From Candidatus Omnitrophota bacterium (GTDB lineage Bacteria > Omnitrophota > Gorgyraeia > Zapsychrales > Zapsychraceae), in assembly GCA_020632495.1 (NCBI GenBank), contig JACKFL010000005.1, positions 1,036,925-1,100,924 on the forward strand: a stretch of 64,000 bases of DNA, in the 5' to 3' direction. The notes below the pieces were generated by a model that was not told where the DNA came from, made no database searches, and worked only from the letters and a program-made list of their open reading frames with translations. A program made the position numbers and the translations under genes. Of the stretch, positions 8,722-24,023 are shown one piece after another (positions within the stretch are counted from its first letter, which is position 1; each line of letters begins with the position of its first letter).

Positions 8722-11700
8722 ATGTTTCAAGTATTTGCAAATAAAAGGTTTGCGCCTCTGCGGCGGTTTTGTTGTGCCGTCCTGGGGGCGGTCTTTGCCT
8801 GCGGATCGCTGACGCCGCCGGCCGCGGCCCAGACCGTGCCCGCGGTCATTCTGCCGCCGGTCGGAGCCATGGTCCAGACCACCGCCGCCTATCTGCCGGT
8901 CACCATGCTCGGCTTGACCGTCCGTCCCGAAGACCCGCTGCAACTGGATTTCATCATCGACGGCGGGCAGACCGGCCTGACCGGCGCGGGGTTAAAGTCC
9001 GAATCGGCCAAGCTGATCAATTATTTTCTGACCGCCCTGACCCTGCCCGAAGACCAGTTGTGGGTCAACCTTTCCCCCTATGAAAAAGACCGCATCATAC
9101 CCGACACCTTATCGCGCACCGAGATGGGCCGCGACATGCTCGCGCAGGATTATCTGCTCAAACAGCTGACCGCCTCCCTGATGTATCCGGAAGACGAACT
9201 CGGCCGCCGCTTTTGGGACCGCATCATTCAGGAAAGCTATCAGCGTTACGGCACCACCGACCTGCCGGCCAGCACCTTCAACAAGATCTGGATCATCCCC
9301 GAATACGCCCACGTCTACAAGCGTGACGGCAGTGTGTTCGTGGTCGACAGTCACCTGAGCGTCATGCTGGAAGAAGACTATCTGGCCGCGGCGGGCCATA
9401 GCGGGGAGGCTCCGGGCGATACCGATGTGCTGGACGAGGCCACCAAGGAACTCATCCGTGAGATCATGATCCCGGCCATCGAGCGCGAGATCAACACGGG
9501 CGAAAACTTCGCCCAGCTGCGCCAAATTTTCAATTCGATGATCCTGGCGGTATGGTACAAAAAGAATCTCAAAGAAAGCCTGCTCGGGCAGGTGTACGCC
9601 GACCGCCAACTGGTCAAGGGTGTCGACCACGTCGATCCGGGATTGAAGCAGGAGATTTATGGCCGGTATCTCGCCGCCTTCCGCAAAGGCGTGTTCGATT
9701 ACGTGAGAGAGGACCTTGATCCGGTCAGCCACGAACCCGTTCCGCGAAAGTATTTTTCGGGCGGTGTCGCCGCCATCGATCAGGCCCAGATCGCGGAGGT
9801 TGACGGTGCGCTGCCGGAAACCTTTGCCGCCAATCTTCACGACACGTTCACTGTTCGCGTGAATTTAACCACGATCGGGGGCGATCCGGATGCGGCGGTA
9901 CTCGCCGAAGAAAGGGGCTGGTCACAACCGCACATCAGCGCTTCGAGGGAACGGATTGAATCCTTACTGGCCTTTGAGGCCTCTCTGAACAGATTCTATC
10001 CGACCCCGTTGACCGGCGGCTGGCTGGAAGCGCAATCCGATGTGATTGTCACCCGGATTATGCGGTTGCTGGAAACACGCAAGCCCCGCGTGATCACCGC
10101 CGATACGCGGAAGTTTGTTGAGGCCCTGGTGATTCATCTGCTGGTCAATTCGATGGACGGGTATTTGCAACGGACGGACGGCCTCGCAGACCGGGCCGAC
10201 GAGTTCGAGTTCACGTTCGATTCACTGGTGGACGGCGAAACGCTGGTCTTGCGTTTTACGGATAACGGCACGGCGCCCGCTCAAGCTGAGGACACCGCGG
10301 CCAAACAACAGGCGATGCGGCAACAGCGTCCGCGTTTCGGGGGGCGGGGCCAGGCGCGTTCGTATCATTTGCCGTATTTGTTGCGGCAGTTGGGACGCCA
10401 GGTCCCCGTTTCGCTTCAGGAGCGCGCGGACGGACACCCGGGCACGGTCACGGAACTGCGGATTTCTCTCACCGACGCGGCCATCCTGATCGACGGCGGC
10501 GACATCCCGGCCTTCAAGGACAGCGAGGAAGTCCTGGCGGATATGCTTGCCGACGGCGACCTTCCGCTGAACGTCAAGCTCTGGCACGCCCTGGAGTTCC
10601 TGGACCGGGTCCGGCATTGGGTCTCCGAAGAGAACTTTGTGGATTCCGATACGCTGGATATCTACCGCCGCGCCTTGACGCTCGTCGAGCCCCCGCGCCA
10701 GTATGACGACCGGAATCTGCTGCGCGCCGAGGCCCAAGGCGGATTGCTGCATGATCTGTACCTGCGCCAGCTCGAGGTCCTGGCGGAGATGGCCGACAGT
10801 ACTCAGCGGTTGCTGCTAATGGAACCGGAGATCATGCTGGAAGATTTGGAGACGCGCATTCTCCGGGCGCATCCGCGTGTCGGGATGCTGACCGGCACGC
10901 AGTATGTCAGCGTCAAGACCAAGCTGATGAAGCTGTTGTCCGATCAAAACCGGGTCCAGCATATTTATGACCGTATCGCGACCAAATATCCCGTGCGCGA
11001 ATACGAACGCACCGCGCGTACCGTACAGCTGTGGGAGAAACTCGTTCCAGGCGACCGGGACCTTGTCGACTACCTGATCGTCCTGGATAAAGACACCATG
11101 CCTTCCGGTGTGGACGGCATGGCCCTGATTCCGGAGGCCCGGACCCTGGTCGTCAGCGAAGAGGCGTTTATGGACGCCGGCCGCCGCCGCGGCGAGATCG
11201 AGGTCGAGCATGTCCTTACGGAGAAACAGATTTTAGCGGTGACCGATGCCATCACCGCGCGGCGGAACATCAACTTCAGCCAGGCACGCGCCGGCCTTGA
11301 CGGACTGCGTGAGCGTATGGCGCCGATCTTTACCGAACTGTTCGGGGAGGGATCGCCGGTGCCGCGCTTCGCGTATCTGCGGCCGTCGCCCACGGCCCTG
11401 GTCGTCGAAATGGATAATGACTCCTTGCTCGCGTTGCGTGAGGCCTCGACAAAAGAGATCACCGAGAAGGTGGCCGCGGCGGACATCGACCGCGACATTG
11501 ATTTGGGGGAGGAAGAAGCCGCCCGATTCCGTCAGCTGCGCGAACTGATGCAGCGCTATCCGGAATACATCGCTATCAATTACCACGATGAACTGATCGC
11601 CTATCTGACCGGCGGTGTTCTGCGTACCACTAACGTGGACGGTCTGCTCGAATATTACCGCCGGAATTATCAGAATGCCTTATATACCCTGATCGACGCG

Positions 11701-14700
11701 ACGATCGCCGATCAGAATCTGCGCGACGCGCTGTTCCAGGAGGCGCGGACGGTCCTCAGTCCGCTCAATCCGCGGTGGAGCAAGATCGAAACGGCTATCC
11801 GCGGGAACAAGGCCTTGATCGACCGGCTGGTCGACAAGAAGGCCAGCCTGATTATCCGCAACGTGACCGGCGGGGAGGTGAATCTGGATGAATCGATGGA
11901 CGAGGTCCAGCGTATGCTGCTGGAACACCGGGCTTACCGCGAGGCCAGCCATGAGTTGAGGGCGGTCCTGCAGTTTATTCCGCCCGGCAAGATGCACCGC
12001 CTGTCCGCTCTGGAGGAACGCCTCGATGACGATATCCGCGTCCGCAAAAGTGCGCCGACACTCACCGAGAGTATCATCGGAAGCGGCAGCGGGACGCCGA
12101 CGCCCGGCATAGCGACGGTGCGCGGCTTCGCGCGGACCAAAAATGACTTGCCGCTGATTGTCCAGGGGATGGGACAGAGCGTCTGGGTTAGGGAGCACGA
12201 AGTCCAGCACGTGATCAACAGCGGATTTACCCTGTACACCTCGGCCGGTTTGAAGACCCCGGGAAGTTTCAATGCGCTGTGGCGGCGGGCGCTGCGGGGC
12301 AAGGCGGTCGCCGATGAAGCCCTGACGGTGACCGACGTCCTGCGGGAGTATCTGCCGGAAGGACGGGTACCCGAACGGACAAACGTGGGCCGGTTTCAGA
12401 TCGTGCACGCGCCGTGGCGGACTTCGCCGGACAAACCGGATAATTTCTTTGAACATGTCGTCATGCCCTTCGATGAAGGGCAGTTTTTCTTCGGTGCGCC
12501 CGCGCAGCCCGACACCGTTGACTGGCGATTCGACGAAGACACCGTCTTTTGGGAAGGACAAATCAACGGGACAGGATTGTCCTTCATCGAACAACGCTGG
12601 CCGTACGCGCTCAATCATTTTCTTATCGTACCGCAGCGCGGCGAACACCGGCCTCAGGTCCTGACCGAACAAGACGTGCGGCTGATGATGGACATCGCCC
12701 GGTCCGAACCGTTGCCGGGCTTCCGTTTGGCTTTCAACAGCCTGAAGGCCGGCGCCTCGATCAATCATCTTCATCTGCACGGCTTGACCGTTCCCGGCAA
12801 TACGTCCGCGTTGGAGCAGGCGGACCTGGTTGAATTGGCACGCCGGGACGGGGTGACCGTCAAGCGTATTGAAGGGGACATCGCCCGCGGGCTCTACTTT
12901 ACCGGCGCCGATCCCGCGGCGGCGGCCGCCACGGCTTACCAATATATTCAACGCCTGCAGGATCAGGATATCGCCCACACGGCCATCGCCACACCGGACG
13001 GTTTATTTGTGCTCCCTGTGCACGGAAATATCATCACCAGTTACGGGATGACCTGGTCTTTTTACGAATTGATGGGCTTTATTGTCAATTCGGACACCGG
13101 CCGGGACTTTTCATGGGTTCGGGAAGAACATATTCTGGCCGAGATGAAGGAAGTCGTGCTCAGCGAACAAGAATTCAACGACACTTACCGGGGCCTGTGG
13201 TCACGGGAGGCCGATAAGGCGGTCTTGACCGCGGGCCCGGTCTACGGTCAGCAGGTTGAGATCGTCGTGCGTCCCGACGGTATGCGTATCGACGGACGGA
13301 CTCTTTCGAATGGCTTGCCGGATATCCGGCATGATTTGAAGCACATCGCGTTTGCCGCGGTCACCGGACGCAGCAGTGTCCTCGATCATTTGACGTACGG
13401 CGCCTACAGTTCCCGGGCCTGGGATGATTTCACCTTCCGCGAGGGAATTCACGCCGGCAATCTGGAAGAGATTTTCGTGCGCGCGATGGAGATTTATCTG
13501 GCCGCCGGCACGCAGACGAATGCGCAGGAGCGGCTCGCCGCGATCACGGCCGATCTCGGAAGACCCGTAGATGAACTGCCTGCGGAATTTGCGGTCTCGC
13601 TGGAGAACGGCTCACTGTTCCGCCGCGTGCTGGATGCGTACGCGGGGCTCGACCGGCAATTGACGACAGAAGGGGAAGTCCGCGTGACTCACCGTTACGC
13701 GCCGCGTTTTCTCAAACCTGCCACCGGCGATGCCGCGATGACCGCCGCCGAACATGACGAGCAGCGCGCGAACGTGGCGCGCATCTATGCGGGCATGGCG
13801 GAGAACTTTAACGTCACCACCGGACAACCGATGTTCCGGGACAGCGAGCGGGTCGCGGCCATGGCCGGGATGTTTTCCACAGGACCCGACGGAGAACGGC
13901 GGGCGGTAGAGACCGACATTTATTCCGTGGCGTTGATGCAACTGCCGCAGGCCATGCGCGACTGGCTGCGGGATATCTTGGTGGCGGATTGGTTACAAAT
14001 CTTCACCGAAACCGATGAGGACATCGATCACTTTATTCCAGAACGCGACACCTATCATATCAGCGTGTCGGTGGTCCAGGATCTGGCCGCCCGACCGGAT
14101 GAGGCGGTCGGAGTCCTCGGCCGGCCGGATGAAGGTTTGACTGAAGACCAGCGCCAACGCATCACGGAAGATTTGCGCCGGATCATCGCGAGCCAGGATA
14201 AGGTCACGCTGACTCCGGTCGGCGCGCGGCTCGGTCCGGACGGGACCCTGATCTTCGTCTTTGAATACGATCCGGCCCTGTACGAGATTCGCGCCGAAGC
14301 GGTGGACGCGGTGCGTGCTCAAAACGCCGCCTTTACCGGACGGCCCAAACCCATGGTGCACGTGACGCTGTCCCGTACGCTCAATAATCCGACGGTAACC
14401 CCCCAGATGGCGGAAATGATCGCGCGTTTCCGTGACCGTTACACTTCGGTCACGAATGCCGACATGGGGCTGGAGGGACCGGTCACCGTGACGGAACTGG
14501 AGTTCAGTCACGAAAAGCGCTGGATGCACACCGAGATCGGCGCGTCCGAGGTGATACCGCTGGGCGGAAGCGATCAGGCCGAACTTGTGCAGTTTCATCC
14601 GTTTGATTTGCTCGGCCTTATCGATCTGGACGGAAAGCGGCTTAAGGCGGCTGTGGAGGCGCAGGAAGACGTCAATGCCTATGACGCGCCGCTTGATGAA

Positions 14701-17700
14701 GAATTGGCCCGGCTGGGATTTACCCGGGAGATGATCATCGAAGAGATCGTTTCCAAACTCGAACAGCGCCGGACGCTGGACCGCTGGGCGGCCACCGACG
14801 CCTTGGAGCACATTTTGCGCGAAGTCCTCGAAAACGCGGTCGACGCCTATATGCAGCGCGCTGATTTTGACGACGAGTTTATGTTCGGTTTCGACGTACG
14901 GTCCCACCCGCGCGGGACCGTCATCCGGTTTCTGGACAACGGAACGCCGCTGTTTGTTTCCGAAACATCCGAAGAGAAACGCGTGCAGAAGAAGGTGTTT
15001 CACAATCGTTACGGCGGAAAACATGCGGGGATGGCAATTATTCGCCATCAGGTCACCACCAATATTGATAAGAGGGCGGAGGTGAAATTGATTGATCTGA
15101 GTTCGCGCTTTCCGGGAGCCGAGCGGAAGCTTGAATTCTTCACGATGCTCGAAATCCTGCTGCCTGACGACGGGGCGGTACTTGCCGAAGCGCCGGTGAA
15201 GTCCGGACCGGGACAATTGACGTTGATGTTCCCTGTATTACGCCGGCTGAAAATAAAGGAGTTCGACAAGGGCAGTCAAACCAGGGTGTTTTCCACCGAG
15301 GCTTGGGATTATGTCTTAAAGGTTTTGCCGGCGGAGCCCAACGGCGTGTTTGTTATCGATAACTACGAACGGTTCCGGCCGTATTTGGGCGGTTTGGTCC
15401 CCGCGTATCAGATCGTGCGCCTGCTGGATACCTTCGGTATGTATCTGGAGGAAGCGGTTGTCATGGAAAAGATTTCCGGACCGAATCTTCTCGAAGATAT
15501 CCGCGCTGCCTATGAAGCCGGTGATATGACGACGGTGGACCGGGTCCTGAGTGAGTTTACGTCATTGCTGCAGGAAATTTATGACCGCGGCCTGCTGATG
15601 CCGGATGTCAAGCTGGTGAATTTCAAGAAACACGACGGACATTACCGGCTGCTTGACGCGGGGATCGTGCTCGACCCGGCGCAGTTCCGCGACGGCCGCG
15701 GGGATATCGAAACGGTCGGCGAATTCTTTATGCAGCGTCATCTGGAAAATCTGCGCGTCCTCGGTGCTGTGGGCGGTTATGAATTGATCAGCCGTTACCG
15801 GGACGCGATGGCCGCGATCGGTCTGGCGGACGGCGAAGGTTTTCTCAAGAAGGTCGGCGAGATGCCGGAAGAGATGACTCCTGCCCCGATGCCGGATATT
15901 TCCGCCGGTATCGTCCGGTCTCTGCACGCGCTGGCGGACGTACCCGCCGAGGTGACCGAGACGGCGGACGCGGAAGACTCTGCCGTTCTCAGTGAAACGG
16001 GCCGTGCCGGACTGGCTGATGAAACGCCGCTGGAAGAACTCGGTCTCAGCCGGCACAGCGAGCGCGTCCTGCGCGACCGCGGCCTGACGACTTTGGGGAT
16101 AATTAAGCAACAGCACCGCAGCGGTGCCTTGAATGATATTCCGGGGATGAAATCTCCGCTCAGCAAAGTGCGGATCGAAATCGACGGACTGATGCTGGAT
16201 TTGATTTCGGGCACCGAGTGGTCGCTGCCGGCGGTAGCCGAGGACATCGCCGCCGAGGCGGCTGATGAGATGGTCCGGGACGAAATCGAAGCGGACCCGG
16301 CGCTGACACGCGGGGAGAAAGATCAGGCGCTGTTGACCTGGCAGTCGGCCGTCGACATGCTGCGTCATTACCGCAACCGCGCGGTCTTGAGCCTGCCGCC
16401 GAAATTTACCAAGCCGGGTCAGCGCGGAATCGTGATGCTGGGCCATCTCCATGGACTTCCGTATGAGTCCCAGGAATGGTTGGATGGACTTAGGTATCTG
16501 GATGAAGCCCGGAACGGGACGGATCCACAGAAGTGGCAGCGGCATGTGACCCGTTGGGAAAATTATTTGAACCAGGCCCTGGACGTTGAGTATGCCGGCT
16601 TGTTGCAGGTCATCGAACAGGACTATGAGCGGGTGAAGACGATTCTCACGGAGATGACCGATATCCGGTTGGCGGGCGTCGAGTATTCGGCCAAGGAATT
16701 TCGCGACCTGATGCCGGAGGCCGAACAGATGGCCGTTCTTCTGCCGCAGCTGCTGCGCCGGCTCAATTTCCAATCCCCGGAGAAACGCGCGCGGCAATTG
16801 ATGTTGTTCACATACGGTCCGTTGGTGTATGCCAAGGTCACGGGTCAGGCGTTCATGCGGGACGTGGAACTGGTGCCGATCGACAATCATTTCCTGAAGA
16901 CGAGCGTCATGGGGGATGTCCGCAAGATCGATGCCGCCCTGGAGCGGGCGCGGTTCAGCCTTTCTCCCGATGCGAAACGCAGCTACCAGGCCGACGCGCA
17001 GGCGATTATCGACCGGCGTTATCGAAAGTTGCGGCTCGACCGTGACCGGCACTTCGCGCTGCAGGTCTTAAAGCACACGCGCAAAGGCCAGGCGATGCTG
17101 GTCAGTCTGGGAAATCTTCATATCGACGGGGTGGACGCGATTCTGAAAGGCCGGCGCGTCCTGCCGCGTGCCGTGATTGATATGAAAGAGTGGGAGGAAA
17201 AAGCGTCGGAATTATTCGTCTTTCCGGACCGGGCCGCCGCTGACAGGGCTGTATTCGGCGCCATTCCGGCACTCGGCGGTAATGATGCGCTTGATCTCGA
17301 CGCCTTTGTGCTCGCCGTGAGCGACACGTATCAGGACCATTTGCGCGGGGCCTGGAACGGTTCGCTGAGATTTTATGTTCCGTTGTCCGAAACCCGCCGC
17401 GACATCGATGACTTTCTGGTGACCGATCCGCGCGACGGCCGGCAGTGGGTGTATCTGGCCGCCCAGACCGGCTCGGAGGCGGGGAAGTCCGAGGCTTACC
17501 TGCTGCGCGTCAAAGAAGCGACCCCAACCAAGATCAGATTCGACGAGATCATGCTGCAACGGGCCACAGGCTTTATCCCGGTTCAGACCTTAATCGATCA
17601 GGGGCTCGCCTTACCGGGCAGCGCGGAGGTGATCATCAAACAGGCCGAGCGCTATATGCGCAACATGCGGCCGGTCATGCTCGCCCTGTTGTCCCAGGGA

Positions 17701-20700
17701 ATCGCGAAACCGAAACTGGTGCTGGGTGCGGCACGCAACAAATTCGACGATGATATGGTCTTTCTGGCAGTACCCATTGTCGATCCGGCCATTCCGCCGT
17801 CGACATTCGAGGGCCTGTATGTGGGTATGCGCGACAACGAACGCGTGTATATTCCGATGCACGCCGCCGGCGACCGCGGCCCGCATGTGCTGGTAAGGCT
17901 GCCGCGTTTGATCAAGATGACAGAGCGGGATCTCCAGGGATTGGCCGGAATAATGGCGGCGCAGACATTCATCGGCCGCCGATTGGGCGCAGAGAAGATC
18001 GGTCCGGCACTCGCCGGGGCCGGCGTTTCACTCGGCGGTGACGAAGTCGAACTCGACACGGACCGCGCCGTGGATAACATTTTTGCCCTGGACAGCGACC
18101 AGACCGACAAGGCCTGGCTCCGGCAGGATTTACGCGAGGCGCTGATATCAGCGGGTTACGTGGAAGACGAGGCCATGATCGCAGACGGTTTGGACGAAAA
18201 GGACGACGAATTTACGGAACTGCTTCGATCGAACGGTTTCGGTCGCAAGGTCGCTGAATTGATTCAACAGGAAGTTCGAAAGTCGGTCCAGCGGTTGGAA
18301 GATGGGCAAACGACCTTTGGCCAGCGTTACCGGACGGTCAAAAACTTCTTAACGAAGATTCAACCGATGGCAGACGACGGAGACACCGAGGCACAGACGA
18401 CTTTTGTCTTCGGTTTCGTTCAGCGTATGGAAGTGGTGGCTCCGAAGAAGGGCCGCCGGGCCGCCGACGTGACGGAGCGCCTGGCCCATGAATTATGGCA
18501 TGTGTACCGAAATGACGACCGGCTGGCGGATGCGTTTTCTGAACTGCGCCTGTTGGAAGAGGATTTGGTGGAAGAAGATGAAGATGTCCGCGGATGGTTC
18601 AATGACCCGGACATCGGACTGGAAGACTATGTTCCCCTATTGGAACGTCATAATCAGGAATTGGACGAGGAGCCGACCGCGGATCCCGATGATCCGGAAC
18701 CGGATTGGTATTCCAGTTTTGCCGAGGACTTGGGGCAGCTCATCTTTATGTTGACGGGCGGCAACGCAGACAAATCTTACCGGATCTTGAACGCCATGGA
18801 CCGTGGACTTTCCCTGCCGCAGGCTGTCGGGGCCGTCCTCGGCGACGAACGGCAGAGCCGCGGCGATATGGCGGTACTGGTCGAACCGCCGTACCTGGTG
18901 GGGATCACCCAGCTGCAGATCGCGGACGTGACGCGCAGTATGGTCTTCGACACCTTCAGCGGCCGGCGTCTCGGTTACCTGCGTGTTCTCAGAGCCCTCA
19001 ATGACGCGCGCATCATCCTCAACCGGGGTAAGCGCATCGATCTGAAGCTGGACCTGGCCGTATCTAATCTGCATGAGCAATCCGGCGGTGACATCGAAGA
19101 GGCGTGGCTCCGTCGCGACCTCAATACGGCCCTGCACAGCATCGGCGTCACCATCGATCAGGCGGTGTTGTCCGAAGACGGCCGTTTCCCGCCGGTAACG
19201 CAGGATGACTTCGTCACTTATTTCAAAAAAGCGTCATGGTGGGGGCCGGTGATCGACCGGCTGGAACAGTTCCGCACGGACGGCTTGATCCACAGTTACG
19301 GATTTACCGGGAGTTTCTCGCGGGGGCAGTACCGCCTCGGATCAAGTAAGGACCTGGACATCGCCCTTGTTTTGCGGGGCGAACCTTTTTACGCGAACCG
19401 ACTCGGACCGGTGGTCGATTTTATCGAGGAAATTAATTCAGATCCCGGCATCCCGGTGCACATCACATTGACGGCCTTCGGACCGTCATACCGGTATTCG
19501 GTCCGCGCGGATACGCTGGAGTTTGACCTGGTGCGTCAGCCCGAGGTGGTTCAGTACTACCTGGATGCCGGACACTATCGCGGCGACCGGTTTGTGCGGA
19601 TTGACGGAAGTACAGCGGATCCGCAGAATCTGTGGCGGTTGCACGCCAAGCTCGTTGAACTGGGACCGATGCCGGAGGAGCAGCTGCGGGAATTTTTAAG
19701 CGGCGTTGATCAGGCCGTCCTGGCGGACGTGATGGATGCCGTCCGACGGAAGCTTCAACGGGACGCGGCCTTCGCCGGACGCGGAAATGAGCATCTGCCT
19801 GGTTATCTGCGGGAGTTTCAGGCCCGCCTGATCCGCGGCCGTACCGCCGCGGACCGTGAAATCATCGACCGGTTGCTCAACAATGAGGACATCCTGACGG
19901 TCACGGATCAAACGCCGCTCTACAACGGCGCTCCGTTAACAGTCGACAATCCGGTGGCATGGGGGAATGACACGCAGATCTTTATGCAGCCCACACGCAG
20001 TATTCATCTTTATCCGGGAGACTTGCGGTTGAAGGGAAGCGGCGGAGCGAATTTCATAAAACAATTTGCCGGAACGGTGTATCCTTATAACGTGCGCGAG
20101 TTCGGCGCGCGCGCCCGGGCCATCTATTTCGGCGCCAACGAACAGAATCTGCAAAAAGAAATGACCGCGGCGCTGTCATTCGCCTATTTAATGGAAACGC
20201 TGTGGCCGACAGAAGGCGCGCAGGCGACCAATATTCCGCTGGGCATCAAGCGCGTCAAGACAGTGACCATAGGCGCAGAGCCGTATCCCGTCGACGTTTA
20301 CTTCAGTAAATTGGCCCGCGAAGATGAGGAAGCGCGGACGGCGATGGAGGAATTACTTGTGCGGCAGTTGGGCAGCCGCCGGGCTGAATATCCGGAGGAT
20401 ACCGCCGCGGCCTTTGTCGCTTTTATGCGTCCGGCGCAAATGCTGGATATGCAGGGTTCGCCGTTGCGCGTCGGTTTAATCCGCAAACTGCTGCTCGAAG
20501 ATTACAGTGCCGAACATGACTTTGATGTGGAAGTCCGTGAACGCTGGCAGCAACGCGGGCAAGCGTTGACGGGATTATCCGCCGAGGAGATCGCGCGATT
20601 GGCCAAGCAACGGGTGGATGACATATTCGGCGAAATTATGCAGGATTACCAACCGCTCGCGGTGGACGCAACCGAACTGATCACGGAAACGGAAGGAGCG

Positions 20701-23700
20701 TCCCCGTTCGCGATCCTCTATCAGGCCACGGACGCCTACCGCCGCCGGACCCTGGTTTATAACGCGCGGGCCGCCGAGCGCTTTTACCGGGACGTGGTGT
20801 ATGATTTGGGACGCTACCTCGGCGCGCTGTGGACCGTGGGCGGCCGAACCGACGGCGGTCCGATCGAAGAACGCAATGTCGCTATCCGGGGTAACCGGGT
20901 AGTCCTGCACGATTGGGATGAGGGTTTTGTGCCGAACCGGGAGACCGTGGGGATCCGGATCGAGCCGTCGGCGATCCGCAATGATTTCGGCATGATGCAG
21001 ATCTCGACGCTGAAAACGATTCAGCAGCTGCTCGGTGTGCATGACCGGTTTGCCGACAGCGCCCAGCGCTATTTTATGGAAGGCGTCACGGCCGGCAGCC
21101 GGCGCGCTATGGAAGAAATCCTGATGAATCCCGGACAAGATGTGCTGAATGATATCGACCGGCAGATGTTGTTGAATGACTGGCGCCGGCTGACGCTGCC
21201 CCGGGAGACCACAACGGATGTCAGCGATGTGTTTGCGGCGGAGTTCCTGCGTTCTGTGCGGGAGCTGGCGCAACAGGGAGAACGTGTCACGGCCGATCAG
21301 GCCGTGCTGGCCGATCCCGCCGCAGACGCGCGCCTCATCAGTGAGATCGAACCGATTGAGCAGTTCGCCCGTTTTATCACAGATATCGAGGACTTGGACG
21401 CGTTTGTCGAGGCGCCTTTGCTGGAAGCGGCCCGCACATTGTTCAAGAAGGGCATCCGCACCTTCTGGACCTCGGCCAACCGCAAGGACATCGCCGAAGG
21501 ATCCCCGGCGGTCCTGATGTTCCTTTATGACGAATTGTCGCCGCGCAACAAGCTGGTGTCGCACAGCGTGGGGCAGGTGCTCGACAACATCAGCACCGTC
21601 GTGCGTATTCCGATGGACGAGACGACGACGGTGGCCGATATTCATCGTGAGGCCATGGCCATCGTCAACCGCTTTGAGGCGCAGCCGATGGACCGCAGCA
21701 TCGCCGAGATTATCCGGCCGGGACGGGACCAGGCTGTCACTGTGGAAGAACAGGACAAGCCGCCGGCGGATGTCCGGCGCCTGGCCGGTGTCGCGTTTAT
21801 CTTCGGCACCGGAAATAACGCAACGGTAATCGATGCCGACGGGAACGTCCGCCTTGAGAACGGAGCGCTCACCGAACTCGGACACAATATTCTTAAGAAA
21901 AGCCGGACCGGGGAATGGGTATTTACGGGGCGGGAAACTTTGGGTGCTAAACCCGATCGGGAATCCGGAGACGTGAGTTTCGAAGATTCCTTCAGTGGTC
22001 CCAACATCGCGCGCCGGTTCGCGCAGACAGACTGGGCGCCGGCGTTTATCAAAACACATGTTACCGCGCTGCCGGAGGGCTTCGCGACTCATACACAACT
22101 TGTTGACTTGGTTCGCAACGTGCCCGATGACGAAAATCTTCGCAAACTCCGGGCGGCGGGTATTGATGTTATTCTGCGGACGATTACAGCCGCGGTATCC
22201 GACGGTGACGCGCAGGCGATAAGCTTTGTCAATCGCTTGGGACGTGAGATCGGTGTGGCCTTGGCAGCTTGGTTGAAGCATTATGCCGCTGAAGATTGGA
22301 CGCAGAATATCGTTTTGGTCAGCGGAGTCGGCGAGCACTTTGCCCGTATTGAAGGAGAGACGGACGATACCAATGTCTTTATCGGAGGTATTCGAGCGGG
22401 CGTAACTTTGGGACTTGCGGAAGCCGGGAAAACGGAAGGTCTACGTTATCTCGACGAAGCGCGGATCCAGGGTATCGCCCGCGGCATACGGCGTTCCACG
22501 ATGGGATGGGAACGCGAGTTATTGGCGGCCCGTTTCACCGAACAAGAACGGTCACAACTGGACATAACCGATGCCGCCCCGCAAGACGCCCTGGCCGTGG
22601 GAATCAGTCTGGGTGGGACAAAGATCGGCGCCGGTCTGATCTCGATGGACGGGAATATACTCGCGCGGGATGAAATTCAATGGCGGCAGCGCTATCACGA
22701 ATCGTCCGCAGGTATTGTCGAAGGTATCGTTGACAGGATTGCGAATTTGCTAACGGCAGACGCCGTACGGAATTTGAGAAAAGTCGGCATCGCTTTTGCC
22801 GGACCCGTGGACCGGGACGCCGGCGTCGTGGGTACGCCGTTTAAAGCGCCCAATCTGCCGTTCGAAAATTATCCGCTGCGACAGGCCATTCGCGAAAGGC
22901 TCTTACAGAAGCTGCAGGACGAGTTTGGCAGCCAAGTTCAAGATCTCACAATCGACATTTACAATGACAATGTGGCGGCGGCTATCGGAGAGCAAAGCCG
23001 GTCAGGTCGATTGAATGCCGGAGCCCGTGATGAGGCCATGCAGGCCTCGGCCCCAAAACAGGCGCGCGTTTTTGACACAGCGGAGGCCGTCGCCTCGGTC
23101 TTTCCGTACGCGGATGTGATCAACCTGCCGGCACTGGCCGAGAGCGGCGTGGTCCTGACCGGTCACGTCAACCGCGTGCCGGCGCAGACATCGCTCGAGA
23201 ACTATGTCTTGAAGGCGCGCCACCAAATGAAGATTTATGAGGGCGGCACGTATCGCGGGGCCGTGCCGTTGTGGGAATACAGTAAACCCGGGCAACTGGT
23301 GAATATCCCGCTGGAAAAGTTCACCGACGCCCGCTGGGTGTTACCGTTGCACGCGCAGTACCGTCCCAAACTGACGGAAAACCAGGGCCTGGTCCGCACG
23401 CTGTTGTGGCTGTATCTGGTGTCCCGTCCTGAATTGCAGGGTGAGAAGGTCGTCGCCATCGGCGCGGCCGAGCCGTTCCGCCGCACGCTGGATGAGATGC
23501 GCGCGGTCTTCGGTGATTACCGGACCTTCACTGAAGATGATTTCGGTTTCCGGCTCAGCCAGCCGGCCTATGAATTTACCGTACCGGTCCTGACCGCCGA
23601 ACAACGCTCTGCGGTGGAATCCTACCTCGAGAAATTCATGCCGATTACCGACGTTGCGTCGGACGGAGACGCAGCCGTCCTCGGCACCGATAAAAAAGGG

Positions 23701-23976
23701 GGGATCGACTTCAATCCGGTAAATATGAATCTGTCGGAGCAGGGAGACGATATCCCGCTGAATGTATCGCCAATCCTCTCGTCACCGCTCGGACCGATTG
23801 AAGGCATCCGGCCGGTGATTATTCAGATCGTTCCCGTCACCAATCTGCCGCTGCTGCTCGGTCTGACCGACAAACCTTCCGAAGATGCTCCTGTTTCCGG
23901 CGCGGATCTTCTCGCCCGTGATCCTGCCGACCGGCGTGCGTTGACGATCGCCGCCCTGGACGTCATCGTCCGTTAA
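8722..23976 (+). CDS. Giant (5,084 aa) signal-peptide-bearing multi-module protein: GHKL-like x2, HIT/GDP-hexose-phosphorylase-like, 2H phosphoesterase, kinase-like, HExxH x2, Pol-beta nucleotidyltransferase, split ROK/ASKHA
   Basis: Uninterrupted 15,255-nt ORF. N-terminal MFQVFANKRFAPLRRFCCAVLGAVFACGSLTPPAAAQ. Motif-level matches are listed in the findings. No Shine-Dalgarno is visible before ATG 8722. Confidence 0.9.
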   Translation: MFQVFANKRFAPLRRFCCAVLGAVFACGSLTPPAAAQTVPAVILPPVGAMVQTTAAYLPVTMLGLTVRPEDPLQLDFIIDGGQTGLTGAGLKSESAKLINYFLTALTLPEDQLWVNLSPYEKDRIIPDTLSRTEMGRDMLAQDYLLKQLTASLMYPEDELGRRFWDRIIQESYQRYGTTDLPASTFNKIWIIPEYAHVYKRDGSVFVVDSHLSVMLEEDYLAAAGHSGEAPGDTDVLDEATKELIREIMIPAIEREINTGENFAQLRQIFNSMILAVWYKKNLKESLLGQVYADRQLVKGVDHVDPGLKQEIYGRYLAAFRKGVFDYVREDLDPVSHEPVPRKYFSGGVAAIDQAQIAEVDGALPETFAANLHDTFTVRVNLTTIGGDPDAAVLAEERGWSQPHISASRERIESLLAFEASLNRFYPTPLTGGWLEAQSDVIVTRIMRLLETRKPRVITADTRKFVEALVIHLLVNSMDGYLQRTDGLADRADEFEFTFDSLVDGETLVLRFTDNGTAPAQAEDTAAKQQAMRQQRPRFGGRGQARSYHLPYLLRQLGRQVPVSLQERADGHPGTVTELRISLTDAAILIDGGDIPAFKDSEEVLADMLADGDLPLNVKLWHALEFLDRVRHWVSEENFVDSDTLDIYRRALTLVEPPRQYDDRNLLRAEAQGGLLHDLYLRQLEVLAEMADSTQRLLLMEPEIMLEDLETRILRAHPRVGMLTGTQYVSVKTKLMKLLSDQNRVQHIYDRIATKYPVREYERTARTVQLWEKLVPGDRDLVDYLIVLDKDTMPSGVDGMALIPEARTLVVSEEAFMDAGRRRGEIEVEHVLTEKQILAVTDAITARRNINFSQARAGLDGLRERMAPIFTELFGEGSPVPRFAYLRPSPTALVVEMDNDSLLALREASTKEITEKVAAADIDRDIDLGEEEAARFRQLRELMQRYPEYIAINYHDELIAYLTGGVLRTTNVDGLLEYYRRNYQNALYTLIDATIADQNLRDALFQEARTVLSPLNPRWSKIETAIRGNKALIDRLVDKKASLIIRNVTGGEVNLDESMDEVQRMLLEHRAYREASHELRAVLQFIPPGKMHRLSALEERLDDDIRVRKSAPTLTESIIGSGSGTPTPGIATVRGFARTKNDLPLIVQGMGQSVWVREHEVQHVINSGFTLYTSAGLKTPGSFNALWRRALRGKAVADEALTVTDVLREYLPEGRVPERTNVGRFQIVHAPWRTSPDKPDNFFEHVVMPFDEGQFFFGAPAQPDTVDWRFDEDTVFWEGQINGTGLSFIEQRWPYALNHFLIVPQRGEHRPQVLTEQDVRLMMDIARSEPLPGFRLAFNSLKAGASINHLHLHGLTVPGNTSALEQADLVELARRDGVTVKRIEGDIARGLYFTGADPAAAAATAYQYIQRLQDQDIAHTAIATPDGLFVLPVHGNIITSYGMTWSFYELMGFIVNSDTGRDFSWVREEHILAEMKEVVLSEQEFNDTYRGLWSREADKAVLTAGPVYGQQVEIVVRPDGMRIDGRTLSNGLPDIRHDLKHIAFAAVTGRSSVLDHLTYGAYSSRAWDDFTFREGIHAGNLEEIFVRAMEIYLAAGTQTNAQERLAAITADLGRPVDELPAEFAVSLENGSLFRRVLDAYAGLDRQLTTEGEVRVTHRYAPRFLKPATGDAAMTAAEHDEQRANVARIYAGMAENFNVTTGQPMFRDSERVAAMAGMFSTGPDGERRAVETDIYSVALMQLPQAMRDWLRDILVADWLQIFTETDEDIDHFIPERDTYHISVSVVQDLAARPDEAVGVLGRPDEGLTEDQRQRITEDLRRIIASQDKVTLTPVGARLGPDGTLIFVFEYDPALYEIRAEAVDAVRAQNAAFTGRPKPMVHVTLSRTLNNPTVTPQMAEMIARFRDRYTSVTNADMGLEGPVTVTELEFSHEKRWMHTEIGASEVIPLGGSDQAELVQFHPFDLLGLIDLDGKRLKAAVEAQEDVNAYDAPLDEELARLGFTREMIIEEIVSKLEQRRTLDRWAATDALEHILREVLENAVDAYMQRADFDDEFMFGFDVRSHPRGTVIRFLDNGTPLFVSETSEEKRVQKKVFHNRYGGKHAGMAIIRHQVTTNIDKRAEVKLIDLSSRFPGAERKLEFFTMLEILLPDDGAVLAEAPVKSGPGQLTLMFPVLRRLKIKEFDKGSQTRVFSTEAWDYVLKVLPAEPNGVFVIDNYERFRPYLGGLVPAYQIVRLLDTFGMYLEEAVVMEKISGPNLLEDIRAAYEAGDMTTVDRVLSEFTSLLQEIYDRGLLMPDVKLVNFKKHDGHYRLLDAGIVLDPAQFRDGRGDIETVGEFFMQRHLENLRVLGAVGGYELISRYRDAMAAIGLADGEGFLKKVGEMPEEMTPAPMPDISAGIVRSLHALADVPAEVTETADAEDSAVLSETGRAGLADETPLEELGLSRHSERVLRDRGLTTLGIIKQQHRSGALNDIPGMKSPLSKVRIEIDGLMLDLISGTEWSLPAVAEDIAAEAADEMVRDEIEADPALTRGEKDQALLTWQSAVDMLRHYRNRAVLSLPPKFTKPGQRGIVMLGHLHGLPYESQEWLDGLRYLDEARNGTDPQKWQRHVTRWENYLNQALDVEYAGLLQVIEQDYERVKTILTEMTDIRLAGVEYSAKEFRDLMPEAEQMAVLLPQLLRRLNFQSPEKRARQLMLFTYGPLVYAKVTGQAFMRDVELVPIDNHFLKTSVMGDVRKIDAALERARFSLSPDAKRSYQADAQAIIDRRYRKLRLDRDRHFALQVLKHTRKGQAMLVSLGNLHIDGVDAILKGRRVLPRAVIDMKEWEEKASELFVFPDRAAADRAVFGAIPALGGNDALDLDAFVLAVSDTYQDHLRGAWNGSLRFYVPLSETRRDIDDFLVTDPRDGRQWVYLAAQTGSEAGKSEAYLLRVKEATPTKIRFDEIMLQRATGFIPVQTLIDQGLALPGSAEVIIKQAERYMRNMRPVMLALLSQGIAKPKLVLGAARNKFDDDMVFLAVPIVDPAIPPSTFEGLYVGMRDNERVYIPMHAAGDRGPHVLVRLPRLIKMTERDLQGLAGIMAAQTFIGRRLGAEKIGPALAGAGVSLGGDEVELDTDRAVDNIFALDSDQTDKAWLRQDLREALISAGYVEDEAMIADGLDEKDDEFTELLRSNGFGRKVAELIQQEVRKSVQRLEDGQTTFGQRYRTVKNFLTKIQPMADDGDTEAQTTFVFGFVQRMEVVAPKKGRRAADVTERLAHELWHVYRNDDRLADAFSELRLLEEDLVEEDEDVRGWFNDPDIGLEDYVPLLERHNQELDEEPTADPDDPEPDWYSSFAEDLGQLIFMLTGGNADKSYRILNAMDRGLSLPQAVGAVLGDERQSRGDMAVLVEPPYLVGITQLQIADVTRSMVFDTFSGRRLGYLRVLRALNDARIILNRGKRIDLKLDLAVSNLHEQSGGDIEEAWLRRDLNTALHSIGVTIDQAVLSEDGRFPPVTQDDFVTYFKKASWWGPVIDRLEQFRTDGLIHSYGFTGSFSRGQYRLGSSKDLDIALVLRGEPFYANRLGPVVDFIEEINSDPGIPVHITLTAFGPSYRYSVRADTLEFDLVRQPEVVQYYLDAGHYRGDRFVRIDGSTADPQNLWRLHAKLVELGPMPEEQLREFLSGVDQAVLADVMDAVRRKLQRDAAFAGRGNEHLPGYLREFQARLIRGRTAADREIIDRLLNNEDILTVTDQTPLYNGAPLTVDNPVAWGNDTQIFMQPTRSIHLYPGDLRLKGSGGANFIKQFAGTVYPYNVREFGARARAIYFGANEQNLQKEMTAALSFAYLMETLWPTEGAQATNIPLGIKRVKTVTIGAEPYPVDVYFSKLAREDEEARTAMEELLVRQLGSRRAEYPEDTAAAFVAFMRPAQMLDMQGSPLRVGLIRKLLLEDYSAEHDFDVEVRERWQQRGQALTGLSAEEIARLAKQRVDDIFGEIMQDYQPLAVDATELITETEGASPFAILYQATDAYRRRTLVYNARAAERFYRDVVYDLGRYLGALWTVGGRTDGGPIEERNVAIRGNRVVLHDWDEGFVPNRETVGIRIEPSAIRNDFGMMQISTLKTIQQLLGVHDRFADSAQRYFMEGVTAGSRRAMEEILMNPGQDVLNDIDRQMLLNDWRRLTLPRETTTDVSDVFAAEFLRSVRELAQQGERVTADQAVLADPAADARLISEIEPIEQFARFITDIEDLDAFVEAPLLEAARTLFKKGIRTFWTSANRKDIAEGSPAVLMFLYDELSPRNKLVSHSVGQVLDNISTVVRIPMDETTTVADIHREAMAIVNRFEAQPMDRSIAEIIRPGRDQAVTVEEQDKPPADVRRLAGVAFIFGTGNNATVIDADGNVRLENGALTELGHNILKKSRTGEWVFTGRETLGAKPDRESGDVSFEDSFSGPNIARRFAQTDWAPAFIKTHVTALPEGFATHTQLVDLVRNVPDDENLRKLRAAGIDVILRTITAAVSDGDAQAISFVNRLGREIGVALAAWLKHYAAEDWTQNIVLVSGVGEHFARIEGETDDTNVFIGGIRAGVTLGLAEAGKTEGLRYLDEARIQGIARGIRRSTMGWERELLAARFTEQERSQLDITDAAPQDALAVGISLGGTKIGAGLISMDGNILARDEIQWRQRYHESSAGIVEGIVDRIANLLTADAVRNLRKVGIAFAGPVDRDAGVVGTPFKAPNLPFENYPLRQAIRERLLQKLQDEFGSQVQDLTIDIYNDNVAAAIGEQSRSGRLNAGARDEAMQASAPKQARVFDTAEAVASVFPYADVINLPALAESGVVLTGHVNRVPAQTSLENYVLKARHQMKIYEGGTYRGAVPLWEYSKPGQLVNIPLEKFTDARWVLPLHAQYRPKLTENQGLVRTLLWLYLVSRPELQGEKVVAIGAAEPFRRTLDEMRAVFGDYRTFTEDDFGFRLSQPAYEFTVPVLTAEQRSAVESYLEKFMPITDVASDGDAAVLGTDKKGGIDFNPVNMNLSEQGDDIPLNVSPILSSPLGPIEGIRPVIIQIVPVTNLPLLLGLTDKPSEDAPVSGADLLARDPADRRALTIAALDVIVR

Positions 23977-23994: not shown

Positions 23995-24023
23995 TTGGCG
24001 CGCCGTGCGCGGTGTGTTAAAAT
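23995..24023 (+). promoter_or_regulatory. Candidate promoter (TTGGCG-17 nt-TGtTAAAAT extended -10)
   Basis: Hexamers read by eye, 59 nt upstream of ATG 24082. Confidence 0.35.

Follow-up and report, generated by a model that had tools for sequence, protein, structure and literature searches.

The D-x-A-V-L pentapeptide that recurs in a giant Omnitrophota protein, encoded in the 64,000-nucleotide stretch of DNA analysed here (hereafter the window), is real, and it is the local variant of a D.AM[LT]-type junction motif found across a large, so far undescribed, exported and Omnitrophota-specific protein family. The best explanation of the whole, to which we give a probability of roughly 0.45, is that this family-wide junction motif is most likely cut, in an exported precursor, by a protease acting in trans.

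A giant protein with head, cargo and tail

Members of the family share one plan: a Sec signal is followed by a head of ~350 aa that closes with PRKYFSGG, then by cargo modules that vary, and finally by a tail of ~75 aa that starts at GGIDxNP. The corresponding parts of the giant protein, together with two modules that could be identified, are as follows.

8722..23976, + strand: giant ORF of 5,084 aa, from the ORF list; member of the Omnitrophota head-cargo-tail family
8722..8829, + strand: Sec-type signal peptide, aa 1-36, read from the sequence, with a putative cleavage position between PPAAAQ and T
8830..9765, + strand: conserved head domain, aa ~37-348, ending PRKYFSGG (45-56% identity, >100 homologues)
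13744..14571, + strand: 2H phosphoesterase (LigT-like) module, aa 1675-1950 (AF2 pLDDT 86-98 across aa 1670-1951)
22597..22902, + strand: N-terminal half of a ROK-type sugar kinase, aa 4626-4727 (Pfam ROK, E 3.2e-10; PDB glucokinase 3vgk)
23698..23973, + strand: conserved tail, aa 4993-5084, running from GGIDFNP to PVIIQIVPVTNLPLLLGL and an acidic extension (consensus of 110 tails)

A homology search returned more than 2,462 homologues of the giant protein, with matches limited to its first ~400 aa, and the N-termini of the homologues are likewise hydrophobic and end in A-x-A-Q. All three cysteines of the giant protein lie within the signal peptide, leaving none in the mature part, and cysteine accounts for 0.04% of family cargo compared to 0.44% in neighbouring genes. 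The 60 invariant columns of alignment A2 are all in the head except for G811, G812, and P850 of the tail, and none of the invariant columns in this alignment is a His or Cys. The head of homologue P0088 was modelled by AF2 as helices and two long hairpins (pLDDT 65-93); the head gave no match in Pfam, NCBIfam or PDB sequences or by Foldseek. The tail of the giant protein matches more than 30 family members, and no match to the tail was found in Pfam, NCBIfam or PDB.

The module names proposed in the sequence-only reading fared unequally. The 2H phosphoesterase at 1670-1951 was confirmed by its fold, as Foldseek matched the module to 1vdx (E 7.7e-6, TMt 0.74) and also to LigT, and the A1 consensus contains two HxT/S motifs; Pfam likewise confirmed the ROK module inside 4336-4983. 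A marginal NTP_transf_2 match (aa 3517-3581, E = 0.039) suggests that the module at 3479-3663 is nucleotidyltransferase-like, as had been proposed. The labels GHKL-1 and GHKL-2 were borne out by no library, the two modules being related to one another via P0121, nor was the kinase-like label, whose module has homologues spanning exactly 2146-2406.

Enrichment of the motif and its place in the family

The nine exact D.AVL copies and the five relaxed copies previously listed all lie in the 5,084-aa ORF where they had been reported, in both amino acid and nucleotide coordinates. The earlier hand estimate of fewer than one exact copy also held, since the composition-based expectation is 0.295, and 20,000 residue shuffles gave a mean of 0.296 and a maximum of 5 copies, with none reaching 9. 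Compared with every other 4-of-5 or 4-mer pattern in the giant protein, D.AVL is the most enriched (Poisson P = 3.6e-11); in a look-elsewhere control, the best pattern that any of 200 shuffles produced reached P = 4.4e-8. Wider classes of the motif are enriched as well, with 12 instances of D.A[VM][LTIVM] against 1.17 expected and 14 instances of D.A[VMIL][LTIVM] plus a small residue against 1.04 expected, while six-frame translation of the rest of the window contained only six D.AVL, approximately the chance level. The relaxed regex also matched DIALV at aa 3546, absent from the earlier list, and this match was rejected as a false positive that corresponds to the nucleotidyltransferase active-site strand.

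In the variable regions of 96 homologues (51 kaa), the top enriched patterns were SSPV (40 versus 0.58 expected), SSPI, and D.AML (23 versus 0.52 expected). Either SSPx or D.AMx occurs in homologues ~40-50 aa past PRKYFSGG and 3-15 aa ahead of GGIDxN, and single-cargo members carry the motif at both ends, past the conserved head and ahead of the conserved tail. The general form is D-x-[A/S]-[M/V]-[L/T/I/V]-small, or x-S-S-P-[V/I/L]-small in other lineages; when the flanks of the sites were aligned, as had been suggested, conservation extended only to a small residue at -1 and +5. Among mosaic proteins with the same modules, those that have the head carry 4-8 motifs and those that lack it 0-1. 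It could be argued that the repeats are a chance or compositional product in a protein rich in Ala, Leu, Val, and Asp, since these four residues rank among its six commonest; however, this reading, whose probability we regard as negligible, is refuted by the shuffles, the look-elsewhere control, and the independent enrichment of the motif class in homologues from other genomes.

Motif sites and module borders

The sequence-only reading had claimed that the motif brackets the modules, and this was upheld: for 12 of the 15 tabulated sites, independent border evidence was found no more than ~20 residues away, in the form of an AF2 domain, orthologue indels, BLAST/HMMER match ends, and the limits of head and tail. 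The sites, preceded by the short module next to the head, are listed below.

9766..9888, + strand: mini-module of ~40 aa from the head to the first D.AVL, starting with the motif-like IDQAQ
9889..9903, + strand: DAAVL, aa 390, junction of head region and first cargo; homologues have SSPx or D.AMx at the same place
10474..10488, + strand: DAAIL, aa 585, relaxed copy; a P0121 match to giant 465-581 stops 4 aa short
12313..12327, + strand: DEALT, aa 1198, probable junction, new relative to the earlier list; a P0061 match (giant 1218-1483) falls between 1198 and 1498
13213..13227, + strand: DKAVL, aa 1498, junction, left end of a cassette absent from P0122, which lacks giant ~1498-1669
13729..13743, + strand: DAAMT, aa 1670, junction, right end of the first P0122-absent cassette and N-terminal border of 2H; AF2 confidence rises here from <50 to >86
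14572..14586, + strand: DQAEL, aa 1951, relaxed copy, C-terminal border of 2H; AF2 low confidence begins and HMMER/BLAST matches stop at 1947-1961
15169..15183, + strand: DGAVL, aa 2150, junction; HMMER matches to the next module begin at aa 2146-2172
15976..15990, + strand: DSAVL, aa 2419, junction; HMMER matches to the preceding module stop by aa 2406
18166..18180, + strand: DEAMI, aa 3149, relaxed copy, left end of the second cassette absent from P0122
18865..18879, + strand: DMAVL, aa 3382, junction, right end of the second P0122-absent cassette; P0122 has a single DSAVL and then the same VEPPYLVG
19156..19170, + strand: DQAVL, aa 3479, junction ahead of the nucleotidyltransferase-like module, from sequence; weak NTP_transf_2 inside 3479-3663
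19708..19722, + strand: DQAVL, aa 3663, junction past the nucleotidyltransferase-like module, from sequence; DQAVP in the orthologue
21295..21309, + strand: DQAVL, aa 4192, junction, from sequence; conserved in P0122
21727..21741, + strand: DQAVT, aa 4336, relaxed copy, junction; a P0121 match begins exactly here, at its own DQAVV
23668..23682, + strand: DAAVL, aa 4983, cargo/tail junction; ~15 of ~34 family tail matches begin at aa 4979-4984

Independent border evidence was found at neither aa 3479 nor aa 4192. Three long intervals of the giant protein (585-1198, 2534-3149, and 4336-4983) are free of the motif, which indicates that not every domain border carries one. Homologues are arranged like the giant protein past the head, with motif 1, about 30 aa, and motif 2, and the DEALT pentapeptide is also present in paralogue L022.

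The junction role of the motif between enzyme cassettes is well supported. AF2 predicts a domain whose high confidence covers exactly aa 1670-1951 and falls to low values to either side, and stand-alone homologues of ~270 aa match this span alone. The orthologue P0122, 93% identical, lacks exactly two [motif + module] cassettes; P0121 carries the giant's modules in another order, with matches that start and end at motifs and a different module upstream of its DQAVV. Interior BLAST match ends fall within 10 aa of a motif in 27.8% of cases compared to 5.6% by chance. Placement of motifs inside domain cores had been named as grounds for abandoning the idea, and only one of 32 motifs lies in Pfam cores, which make up 31% of the sequence (P = 1e-4); structure prediction, also proposed earlier, gave two AF2 models, and in each the motif falls in linkers of low confidence. 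A cassette is gained or lost together with its motif, as one [motif + module] unit.

The suggestion that the motifs are relics of fused genes that each bore the same C-terminal tag was not supported in the form given. The stand-alone 2H homologue P0130 (~270 aa), the one in which the C-terminus was read (P0139, P0143, and P0148 being left out), lacks a tag of this kind, and a regex scan of P0130 and P0135 gave no motif hit within ~30 residues of the ends of the 2H module. The position of the motif past the head and ahead of the tail in single-cargo members, and its absence from head-less mosaic proteins with the same modules, also count against the suggestion.

Proposed processing of an exported precursor and its alternatives

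In the mechanism that we favour, a Sec-exported, cysteine-free modular protein comprises the ~350-aa head, 1 to >12 cargo cassettes, and the ~75-aa tail. The cassettes, mostly cytoplasmic-type enzymes, fold independently and are gained, lost, and reshuffled together with their motif, one motif being placed in each short unstructured joint past the head, between cassettes, and right ahead of the tail. The motif would be a recognition site, its most likely role being cleavage after the aliphatic fifth residue and ahead of the small residue by a protease encoded elsewhere and acting in trans, and the giant protein would be a polyprotein that delivers many separate enzymes. Such processing is plausible because the motif is a compact element of 5-6 residues, aliphatic then small, in unconserved, unstructured joints of an exported family. 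It should be noted that no protease domain was found in the giant protein (Pfam, NCBIfam) or in the head, and that the gene neighbourhoods of 79 family loci revealed no conserved protease. Two sites are changed non-conservatively in the close orthologue P0122 (DAAVL to DAAEL, V to E; DQAVL to DQAVP, L to P), where motif positions are no more conserved than the remaining protein, and these changes speak against processing. Furthermore, the two motif forms are alike only in size and hydrophobicity, so that a single protease specificity is an assumption.

Alternatively, the motif could be an uncleaved joint or docking peptide, with the multi-enzyme protein remaining intact. It would then act as a standard hinge or insulator separating domains, or as a short linear motif to which a partner binds many times over; candidate partners are an export chaperone that maintains translocation competence of the chain, a surface receptor, and the protein's own head or tail domain. 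The low-confidence linkers around the motif, its strict tie to proteins with head and tail, and the failure to find a protease partner in the giant protein or at the 79 loci all fit this explanation; the two changes tolerated in the orthologue would suit a redundant multi-copy binding motif, and the lack of cysteine would suit export of an unfolded chain that needs a chaperone. However, ordinary linkers do not keep a specific pentapeptide across a phylum, AF2 shows no packing of the motif on head or tail (confidence there is low), and the conserved small residue right past the aliphatic one is more like a scissile bond than a hinge; we consider an uncleaved joint possible but doubtful.

At the DNA level, the coding sequence of the motif might be an in-frame seam for cassette exchange, with a peptide of little function in itself. 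Orthologue indels that end at motifs and the different module order in relatives are consistent with such a seam, as are VENN (cdiA) and PxxxxDPxGL (rhs), which demarcate swappable modules (PMC3150448). In other genomes, moreover, motif codons are unusually uniform (119 D.AM instances, 47 loci): the Ala codon is GCG in 72 of 119 instances versus 32 expected and the Leu codon CTG in 30 of 49 versus 9.2 expected, with the enrichment of third-position G confined to the inside of the motif. A model of the motif purely as a protease site would not predict this synonymous-site bias, which hints at a constraint beyond that model. In the window, however, the Val, Leu, Ala, and Asp codons vary among the nine D.AVL sites, with four kinds each of Val and Leu codon, and the flanking DNA is unrelated; these data indicate selection on the peptide rather than on a repeat in the DNA. 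Homologous recombination would also need more than nine to fifteen bases, no clean microhomology is seen in the orthologue junction DNA, where the linker just upstream differs, two chemically different motif forms are each conserved as peptides, and single-cargo members keep the motif at both ends, so a recombination seam appears improbable. Still less probable, to the point of being very hard to credit, are internal translation starts, in which Met (ATG) or Val (GTG) at position 4 would serve as a start codon and modules would also be made separately from the giant mRNA. Of 118 D.A[MV] instances in homologues, 105 have Met at position 4, and the third-position G enrichment upstream of the ATG suggests nucleotide-level constraint; however, GTG is used at only two of the nine window sites, the others having GTA, GTC, or GTT, none of them a start codon, the SSP[VIL] form offers no start codon either, the 18 bases upstream show no Shine-Dalgarno-like conservation, and modules made in this way would lack a signal peptide.

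Comparison with known systems

The motif is a variant of the junction or processing motifs of modular effector proteins. Like the giant protein, MARTX toxins are secreted and very large, reaching about 5,200 aa, and conserved regions at the N- and C-terminus frame their variable effector modules; their effector sets vary between strains via cassette exchange. MARTX effectors are parted by unstructured joints with a small-Leu-small site that is cut after Leu (PMC2900308; PMC5218395); in the window motif, the final Leu precedes A, S, T, G, or V, and its aliphatic-small shape in an unstructured inter-effector joint resembles these sites (PMC2900308). However, MARTX toxins have no sequence or domain homology to the giant protein, in which neither RTX repeats nor a C80 cysteine protease domain was found (Pfam, NCBIfam), and they use type I secretion as opposed to a Sec signal peptide. 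The giant's motif is also longer and more specific (D-x-A-V/M-L, with an SSP[VI] form in other lineages), and cleavage is established in MARTX, while the window motif is a candidate site. Viral polyprotein sites (3C/3C-like, NS3, nsP2 type) are similarly recurrent and short, with a defined P1 and a small P1', at every border of a mature product; there, however, the protease lies inside the polyprotein, where none is detectable in the giant protein, which is encoded by a bacterial chromosomal gene and whose products would be exported enzymes.

In polymorphic toxins, the short peptides VENN (CdiA) and PxxxxDPxGL (Rhs) sharply part swappable modules from conserved delivery parts, exchange between strains takes place at the motif, and orphan cassettes keep it (PMC3150448). 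The giant family likewise shows indels and reshuffling at its motif, and its homologues a codon-level bias there. VENN and PxxxxDPxGL occur once per protein, ahead of a single C-terminal toxin paired with an immunity gene; the giant-family motif, in contrast, recurs up to ~15 times between internal enzyme cassettes and is followed by a conserved tail. Neither FHA nor YD repeats were found in the giant protein (Pfam, NCBIfam), and a neighbour survey of the 79 family loci, not aimed at immunity genes, revealed no small gene that is conserved nearby.

Giant proteins of Omnitrophota were described by West-Roberts et al. 2023 (bioRxiv 10.1101/2023.11.21.568195) and in a 2026 complete-genome survey (bioRxiv 10.64898/2026.06.07.730766), neither of which describes the PRKYFSGG head, the GGIDxNP tail, or the junction motif. 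The published giants come from the same phylum and are also very long enzyme-domain mosaics with signal peptides; a 'Dockerin-type' class contains HEAT, radical SAM, NUDIX, HAD, and HATPase domains. The largest published classes are set apart, by description, by transmembrane-helix anchors and C39 or S8 peptidase domains, which are absent from the window protein. Post-translational cleavage was proposed for the published giants, with cleavage points that are unknown according to the authors, and the motif supplies the first concrete candidate sites at which cutting of this family's giant proteins could be tested.

Copies of the motif and the borders of the modules

Every motif copy discussed here lies in a single giant open reading frame (ORF):

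8722-23976, + strand: giant ORF, 5,084 amino acids (aa)

The sequence-only reading had reported nine exact copies of the pentapeptide D.AVL and five relaxed copies in this protein, with an expectation below one for the exact form. All of these copies are present at the reported positions, the computed composition-based expectation for D.AVL in the giant protein was 0.295, and none of 20,000 residue shuffles reached nine copies (maximum 5). Because D.AVL had been picked after it was seen, every 4-of-5 and 4-mer pattern in the giant protein was also scored in a look-elsewhere control with 200 shuffles; D.AVL was the most enriched pattern (P = 3.6e-11), the best value across the shuffles being 4.4e-8. 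A chance origin of D.AVL is ruled out by the shuffle and look-elsewhere controls. Six-frame translation of the window outside the giant ORF yielded six D.AVL, which is about chance level.

Wider forms of the motif were enriched as well, with 12 occurrences of D.A[VM][LTIVM] in the giant protein versus 1.17 expected, and 14 versus 1.04 for a slightly wider class with a following small residue. Paralogues of the window's own species carry DESML, DGAML, DQAVI, DNALL, DQAMV, DLAMT, DEALT, and DEAVQ; since these forms vary, D.AVL is the locally uniform form of the class D-x-[A/S]-[M/V/L/I]-[L/T/I/V], to which the copies that had been called relaxed belong as ordinary members. DEALT at aa 1198 probably belongs to it too. 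DIALV at aa 3546 was considered and rejected, as it is the D.D strand of the nucleotidyltransferase-like module. When patterns were scored family-wide, in 51,443 aa of variable sequence taken from 96 homologues, SSPV (40 versus 0.58 expected), SSPI, and D.AML (23 versus 0.52 expected) ranked highest, and ASSP, D.AMT, and DAAM were neighbouring enriched patterns; both forms of the motif co-occur in some homologues. A residue logo revealed no conservation beyond the five positions except a small residue at -1 and +5.

The claim that the motifs bracket modules was supported by five independent tests. AlphaFold2 (AF2), given aa 1640-2440 and an alignment of 25 rows, predicted a single confident domain (pLDDT 86-98) that occupies exactly aa 1670-1951, with pLDDT below 50 immediately before DAAMT(1670) and from DQAEL(1951) on; this structure-based test was usable for this one module, the 2H module, as the two neighbouring modules were too poorly predicted to judge. 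An exhaustive HMMER search with aa 1490-2440 returned 2H-module matches spanning about aa 1668-1961, including stand-alone proteins of ~270 aa, and matches to the next-but-one module spanning about aa 2146-2406. Furthermore, the close orthologue P0122 (4,692 aa, 93% identical where aligned) shows two large indels, in which DKAVL(1498) with the module up to DAAMT(1670) and DEAMI(3149) with the module up to DMAVL(3382) are missing; one motif is kept at each place. The mosaic relative P0121 shares modules with the giant protein in a different order, with its own motifs at the seams, and its matches on the giant protein stop at 1676, cover 1667-1957, and begin exactly at 4336.

Interior ends of BLAST matches fell within 10 aa of a motif in 27.8% of 72 non-redundant cases, versus 5.6 +/- 2.8% of random positions (maximum 18.1% in 1,000 trials). 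Only one of 32 motifs lay within Pfam domain cores, which cover 31% of the variable regions of the 16 homologues compared (P = 1e-4). Border evidence was found within ~20 residues of 12 of the 15 motif sites in the giant protein, and none was found within that distance of sites 3479, 3663, and 4192.

A family with a conserved head and tail

A homology search with aa 1-800 of the giant protein gave at least 2,462 significant matches, nearly all from Candidatus Omnitrophota, which align to its first ~350-450 aa only. A common plan, worked out on eight homologues and then on all 120, consists of a Sec-type signal peptide, a head ending in PRKYFSGG, a variable middle, and a tail starting GGI[DN][FL][ND]P. 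The giant protein follows this plan: aa 1-348 comprise a Sec-type signal peptide and the conserved ~310-aa head, which ends in PRKYFSGG at aa 341-348 and is 45-56% identical to more than 100 homologues, and aa 4993-5084 align with the consensus of 110 tails (GGIDLNP.nLdLqikrdG.Gvplpf....Qpi..m.I.GF.PVIINITPitNlPlLLGl; family pattern over ~75 aa, GGI[DN][FL][ND]P ... PVIINITP..N.P.LLG). Among the GTDB genomes scanned, that of Candidatus Omnitrophota bacterium HKST-UBA13 carries a 97%-identical copy along with two paralogues, and dozens of further Omnitrophota assemblies contain members of the family. At 15 of 79 family loci (L009, L012, L004, L016, L065, L052, and others), two or three ORFs with the head lie inside ~20 kb.

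The head and tail matched nothing in Pfam even at E <= 1, and their family profile found no relative among PDB sequences, only coiled-coil noise. In a Foldseek search of the PDB with the AF2 model of homologue P0088, the head (pLDDT 65-93) had no match (best E 0.064), and the tail matched none of the Pfam/NCBIfam sorting-signal models (T9SS CTD, PEP-CTERM, GlyGly-CTERM, LPXTG) even at E <= 1. A full-text literature search for the head and tail signatures returned no paper, and the family appears to be undescribed. It should be noted that the family-wide sample is skewed toward heads resembling the query, because word-based searches with the middle 1,201 aa and with the tail gave one match (P0121) and one fragment, respectively.

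The variable middles, here called cargo, contain many different Pfam domains, among them UDP-glucose pyrophosphorylase, PEP carboxykinase, glutamate and alanine dehydrogenase, NDK, phosphoglucomutase, NUDIX, radical SAM, HAD, DnaJ, response regulator, peptidase M3, Macro, and ROK. Across the family, the junction patterns D.[AS][MV][LTIV] and SSP[VIL] follow the head, separate cargo modules, and precede the tail; the copy shortly after the head is often doubled, with a ~30-aa mini-module between the copies, and the copy before the tail stands 3-15 residues ahead of GGIDxN in homologues. In the giant protein the mini-module (window 9766-9888, aa 349-389; ~30-40 aa) is conserved at the same place as in homologues and is flanked on one side by a motif-like element that directly follows PRKYFSGG and reads IDQAQ here but SSPx or D.AMx in homologues, and on the other by the first full motif. 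A small helix-strand element is predicted for it in P0088 (AF2, pLDDT ~60).

The cargo is nearly free of cysteine. The three Cys of the giant protein (aa 17, 18, and 27) all lie in the signal peptide, leaving none in the remaining ~5,050 residues; family cargo regions hold 44 Cys in 109,639 aa (0.04%), with none in 110 of 141 regions, and the ten neighbouring genes of the giant ORF average 0.44% Cys. Such depletion is typical of proteins exported unfolded or working outside the cytoplasm.

About 60% of the giant protein has no assignable fold. Pfam and NCBIfam matched a ROK sugar-kinase segment only (aa 4626-4727), and a PDB sequence search found glucokinase alone. The 2H module has the fold of a 2H phosphoesterase (LigT; Foldseek 1vdx, E 7.7e-6, TMt 0.74), and the nucleotidyltransferase-like module has a weak NTP_transf_2 match at aa 3517-3581. 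Pfam returned nothing for stand-alone homologues of the 2H and 'kinase-like' modules, and AF2 confidence was low throughout the P0088 cargo and for both the 'kinase-like' and the second 'GHKL' module. The module at window 12313-13212 (aa 1198-1498) aligns to residues 610-899 of homologue P0061 at 23% identity, and precomputed Pfam assigns PF26216 and PF26217 to P0061 and PF26217 (GDPGP1_N) to P0122; since these hits come without positions, a GDP-hexose phosphorylase-like identity is only a lead. Our own Pfam scan of the giant protein gave no GDPGP1_N at aa 1198-1498.

Large proteins found via shared 2H or kinase-like modules were compared for the motif. The mosaics P0122, P0134, and P0144, which have the PRKYFSGG head, and P0121, which is truncated at its N-terminus, carry 4-8 D.A[MV]x versus 0.2-1.1 expected, whereas headless mosaics, several of them with signal peptides, carry 0-1 (P0125 of 4,961 aa, P0127, P0133, P0136, P0137, and P0149 included). 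The motif belongs to the head/tail system rather than to the modules. The sequence-only reading had also offered the motifs as relics of a C-terminal tag of once-separate genes, and this is not supported: stand-alone P0130 ends without such a tag, and the motif regex matched nothing near the module ends of P0130 and P0135, the two scanned of a stand-alone set that also comprises P0139, P0143, and P0148, which argues against tag relics from free-standing genes. As a separate observation, P0124, P0126, P0129, P0131, P0125, and P0127 are exported mosaics of up to 4,961 aa with a 2H module, other N-termini, and no junction motif, which suggests that more families of exported multi-enzyme proteins exist apart from this one.

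Possible roles: processing site, hinge, or trace of recombination

The Val codons at the nine exact sites are, in order, GTA, GTC, GTA, GTT, GTA, GTG, GTC, GTG, and GTC; Leu is encoded in four different ways, Asp by either of its codons, and Ala by two, and the flanking DNA is unrelated. Because the codons vary and the flanking DNA is unrelated, the conserved object in this genome is the peptide. The codon variety rules out a DNA repeat in the window, and internal GTG starts are likewise ruled out, with only two of the nine Val codons being GTG. Altogether, these data show a compact peptide motif that is under protein-level selection, sits in every unstructured joint of a family of exported modular proteins, and is specific to them.

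The motif is best read as a site recognised for endoproteolytic processing after export, a plausible reading to which we assign a probability of roughly 0.4-0.45. The cut would fall between the aliphatic fifth residue and the small sixth one; at the nine exact sites the latter is, in order, A, T, A, S, V, S, A, A, and G. However, no protease domain was found in the giant protein by Pfam, NCBIfam, or PDB sequence search, alignment A2 has no invariant His or Cys column, and two sites are changed non-conservatively in P0122. Nor is a protease a conserved neighbour around the 79 family loci, where the only recurrent genes are unrelated ones (TPR membrane proteins, histidine kinases, an ABC exporter, a glycosyltransferase, and also antisense shadow ORFs). 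The motif could instead serve as a hinge or docking peptide that is never cut, which we consider somewhat less likely than processing.

A mainly recombinational role, which we consider improbable, draws on codon usage in other genomes. Among 119 D.AM instances at 47 loci, third codon positions are G-rich inside the motif only, along the pattern GAY NNG GCG ATG CTG: Ala is GCG in 72 of 119 versus 32 expected from each gene's own codon usage (36% for Ala before Met elsewhere in those genes), the motif Leu is CTG in 30 of 49 versus 9.2 expected, and flanking third positions are near background. The SSPV form in L020, a family locus of another genome, is mostly GCC AGY TCG CCG GTG. This bias could reflect linker DNA travelling with shuffled cassettes, as there is precedent in cdiA, where the sequence that encodes VENN marks off modules open to exchange (PMC3150448), or it could be a translation- or RNA-level signal. 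The bias is absent from the window itself, and the junction DNA of the orthologue indels showed no clean microhomology.

Processing at the motif could be one part of a larger scheme, in which the motifs would be the cleavage code for a bacterial polyprotein system found throughout the phylum, with enzymes acting outside the producer's cytoplasm; we regard this extension as doubtful. Head-cargo-tail precursors of Omnitrophota would leave through Sec, every junction would be cut by a dedicated protease whose lineage-specific specificity matches SSP[VI] or D.A[MV]L, and batteries of Cys-free, nucleotide-using enzymes would be released, which might act inside prey or host cells.

The genes around the giant ORF are as follows:

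3252-4871, + strand: GroEL
4961-5596, + strand: Hsp20
5436-6626, + strand, just upstream of the giant ORF: HtrA/DegP-type trypsin-PDZ protease
6663-8513, + strand: HtpG
24740-27145, downstream: TolC-like outer-membrane factor of an RND efflux set
27091-28245, downstream: HlyD-type membrane-fusion protein of the same set
28242-31310, downstream: AcrB-type pump of the same set

Positions 3252-8513 form a heat-shock/protein-quality-control cluster directly upstream of the giant ORF, and positions 23995-31310 hold an F420/NADP oxidoreductase-like gene and the efflux set. An F420-type oxidoreductase gene also follows the orthologue at locus L080. HtrA proteases cut after aliphatic residues; the upstream HtrA (5436-6626) was considered as the processing enzyme and set aside, as it belongs to the heat-shock cluster and nothing ties it in particular to the giant protein.

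The Omnitrophota, uncultured nanobacteria of wide distribution that are thought to live as predators or parasites, encode some of the longest proteins known. The family is very large (at least 2,462 matches) and exports a broad range of enzymes of cytoplasmic type. For it, the motif gives a precise candidate cleavage site, D.A[MV][LT] or SSP[VI] followed by a small residue, that is searchable in existing metaproteomes, and a practical rule for dividing giant proteins, ahead of structure prediction and annotation, into units that can fold on their own. If the proteins are never cut, a pentapeptide kept phylum-wide at each seam between domains would remain an unusual feature of protein architecture.

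Comparison with known systems

Published work on Omnitrophota asks whether the giant proteins act whole or cut into pieces and states the cleavage points to be unknown (10.1101/2023.11.21.568195); two Omnitrophota giant-protein preprints, this one among them, propose post-translational cleavage and describe its points as unknown, and neither mentions the head, the tail, or the motif. A viral-type self-processing polyprotein encodes its protease within, whereas Pfam, NCBIfam, and PDB sequence searches found none in the giant protein, ~60% of which is without an assignable fold. CdiA and Rhs proteins have an FHA- or YD-repeat delivery region, which Pfam and NCBIfam did not find here, and a single VENN or PxxxxDPxGL before a C-terminal toxin, whereas the giant-protein motif differs and recurs internally; their immunity gene adjoins the toxin, while the gene downstream of the giant ORF is the F420-type oxidoreductase.

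MARTX toxins use type I secretion rather than a Sec signal and have glycine-rich RTX-type repeats at both ends, of which Pfam and NCBIfam found none in the giant protein, and its head and tail are unrelated sequences. Their internal InsP6-activated peptidase C80 has no Pfam match in the giant protein, whose mature part is without any Cys. In MARTX, conserved ends flank modular effectors that are freed by cuts at small-Leu-small sites in unstructured joints (PMC2900308), and this is the closest functional precedent for cleavage at the motif. Leu is followed by a small residue at all nine exact sites of the giant protein, a sequence compatible with such cuts, and the pentapeptide appears to be the kind of junction or processing motif that marks modular effector-delivery proteins, in an apparently undescribed family.
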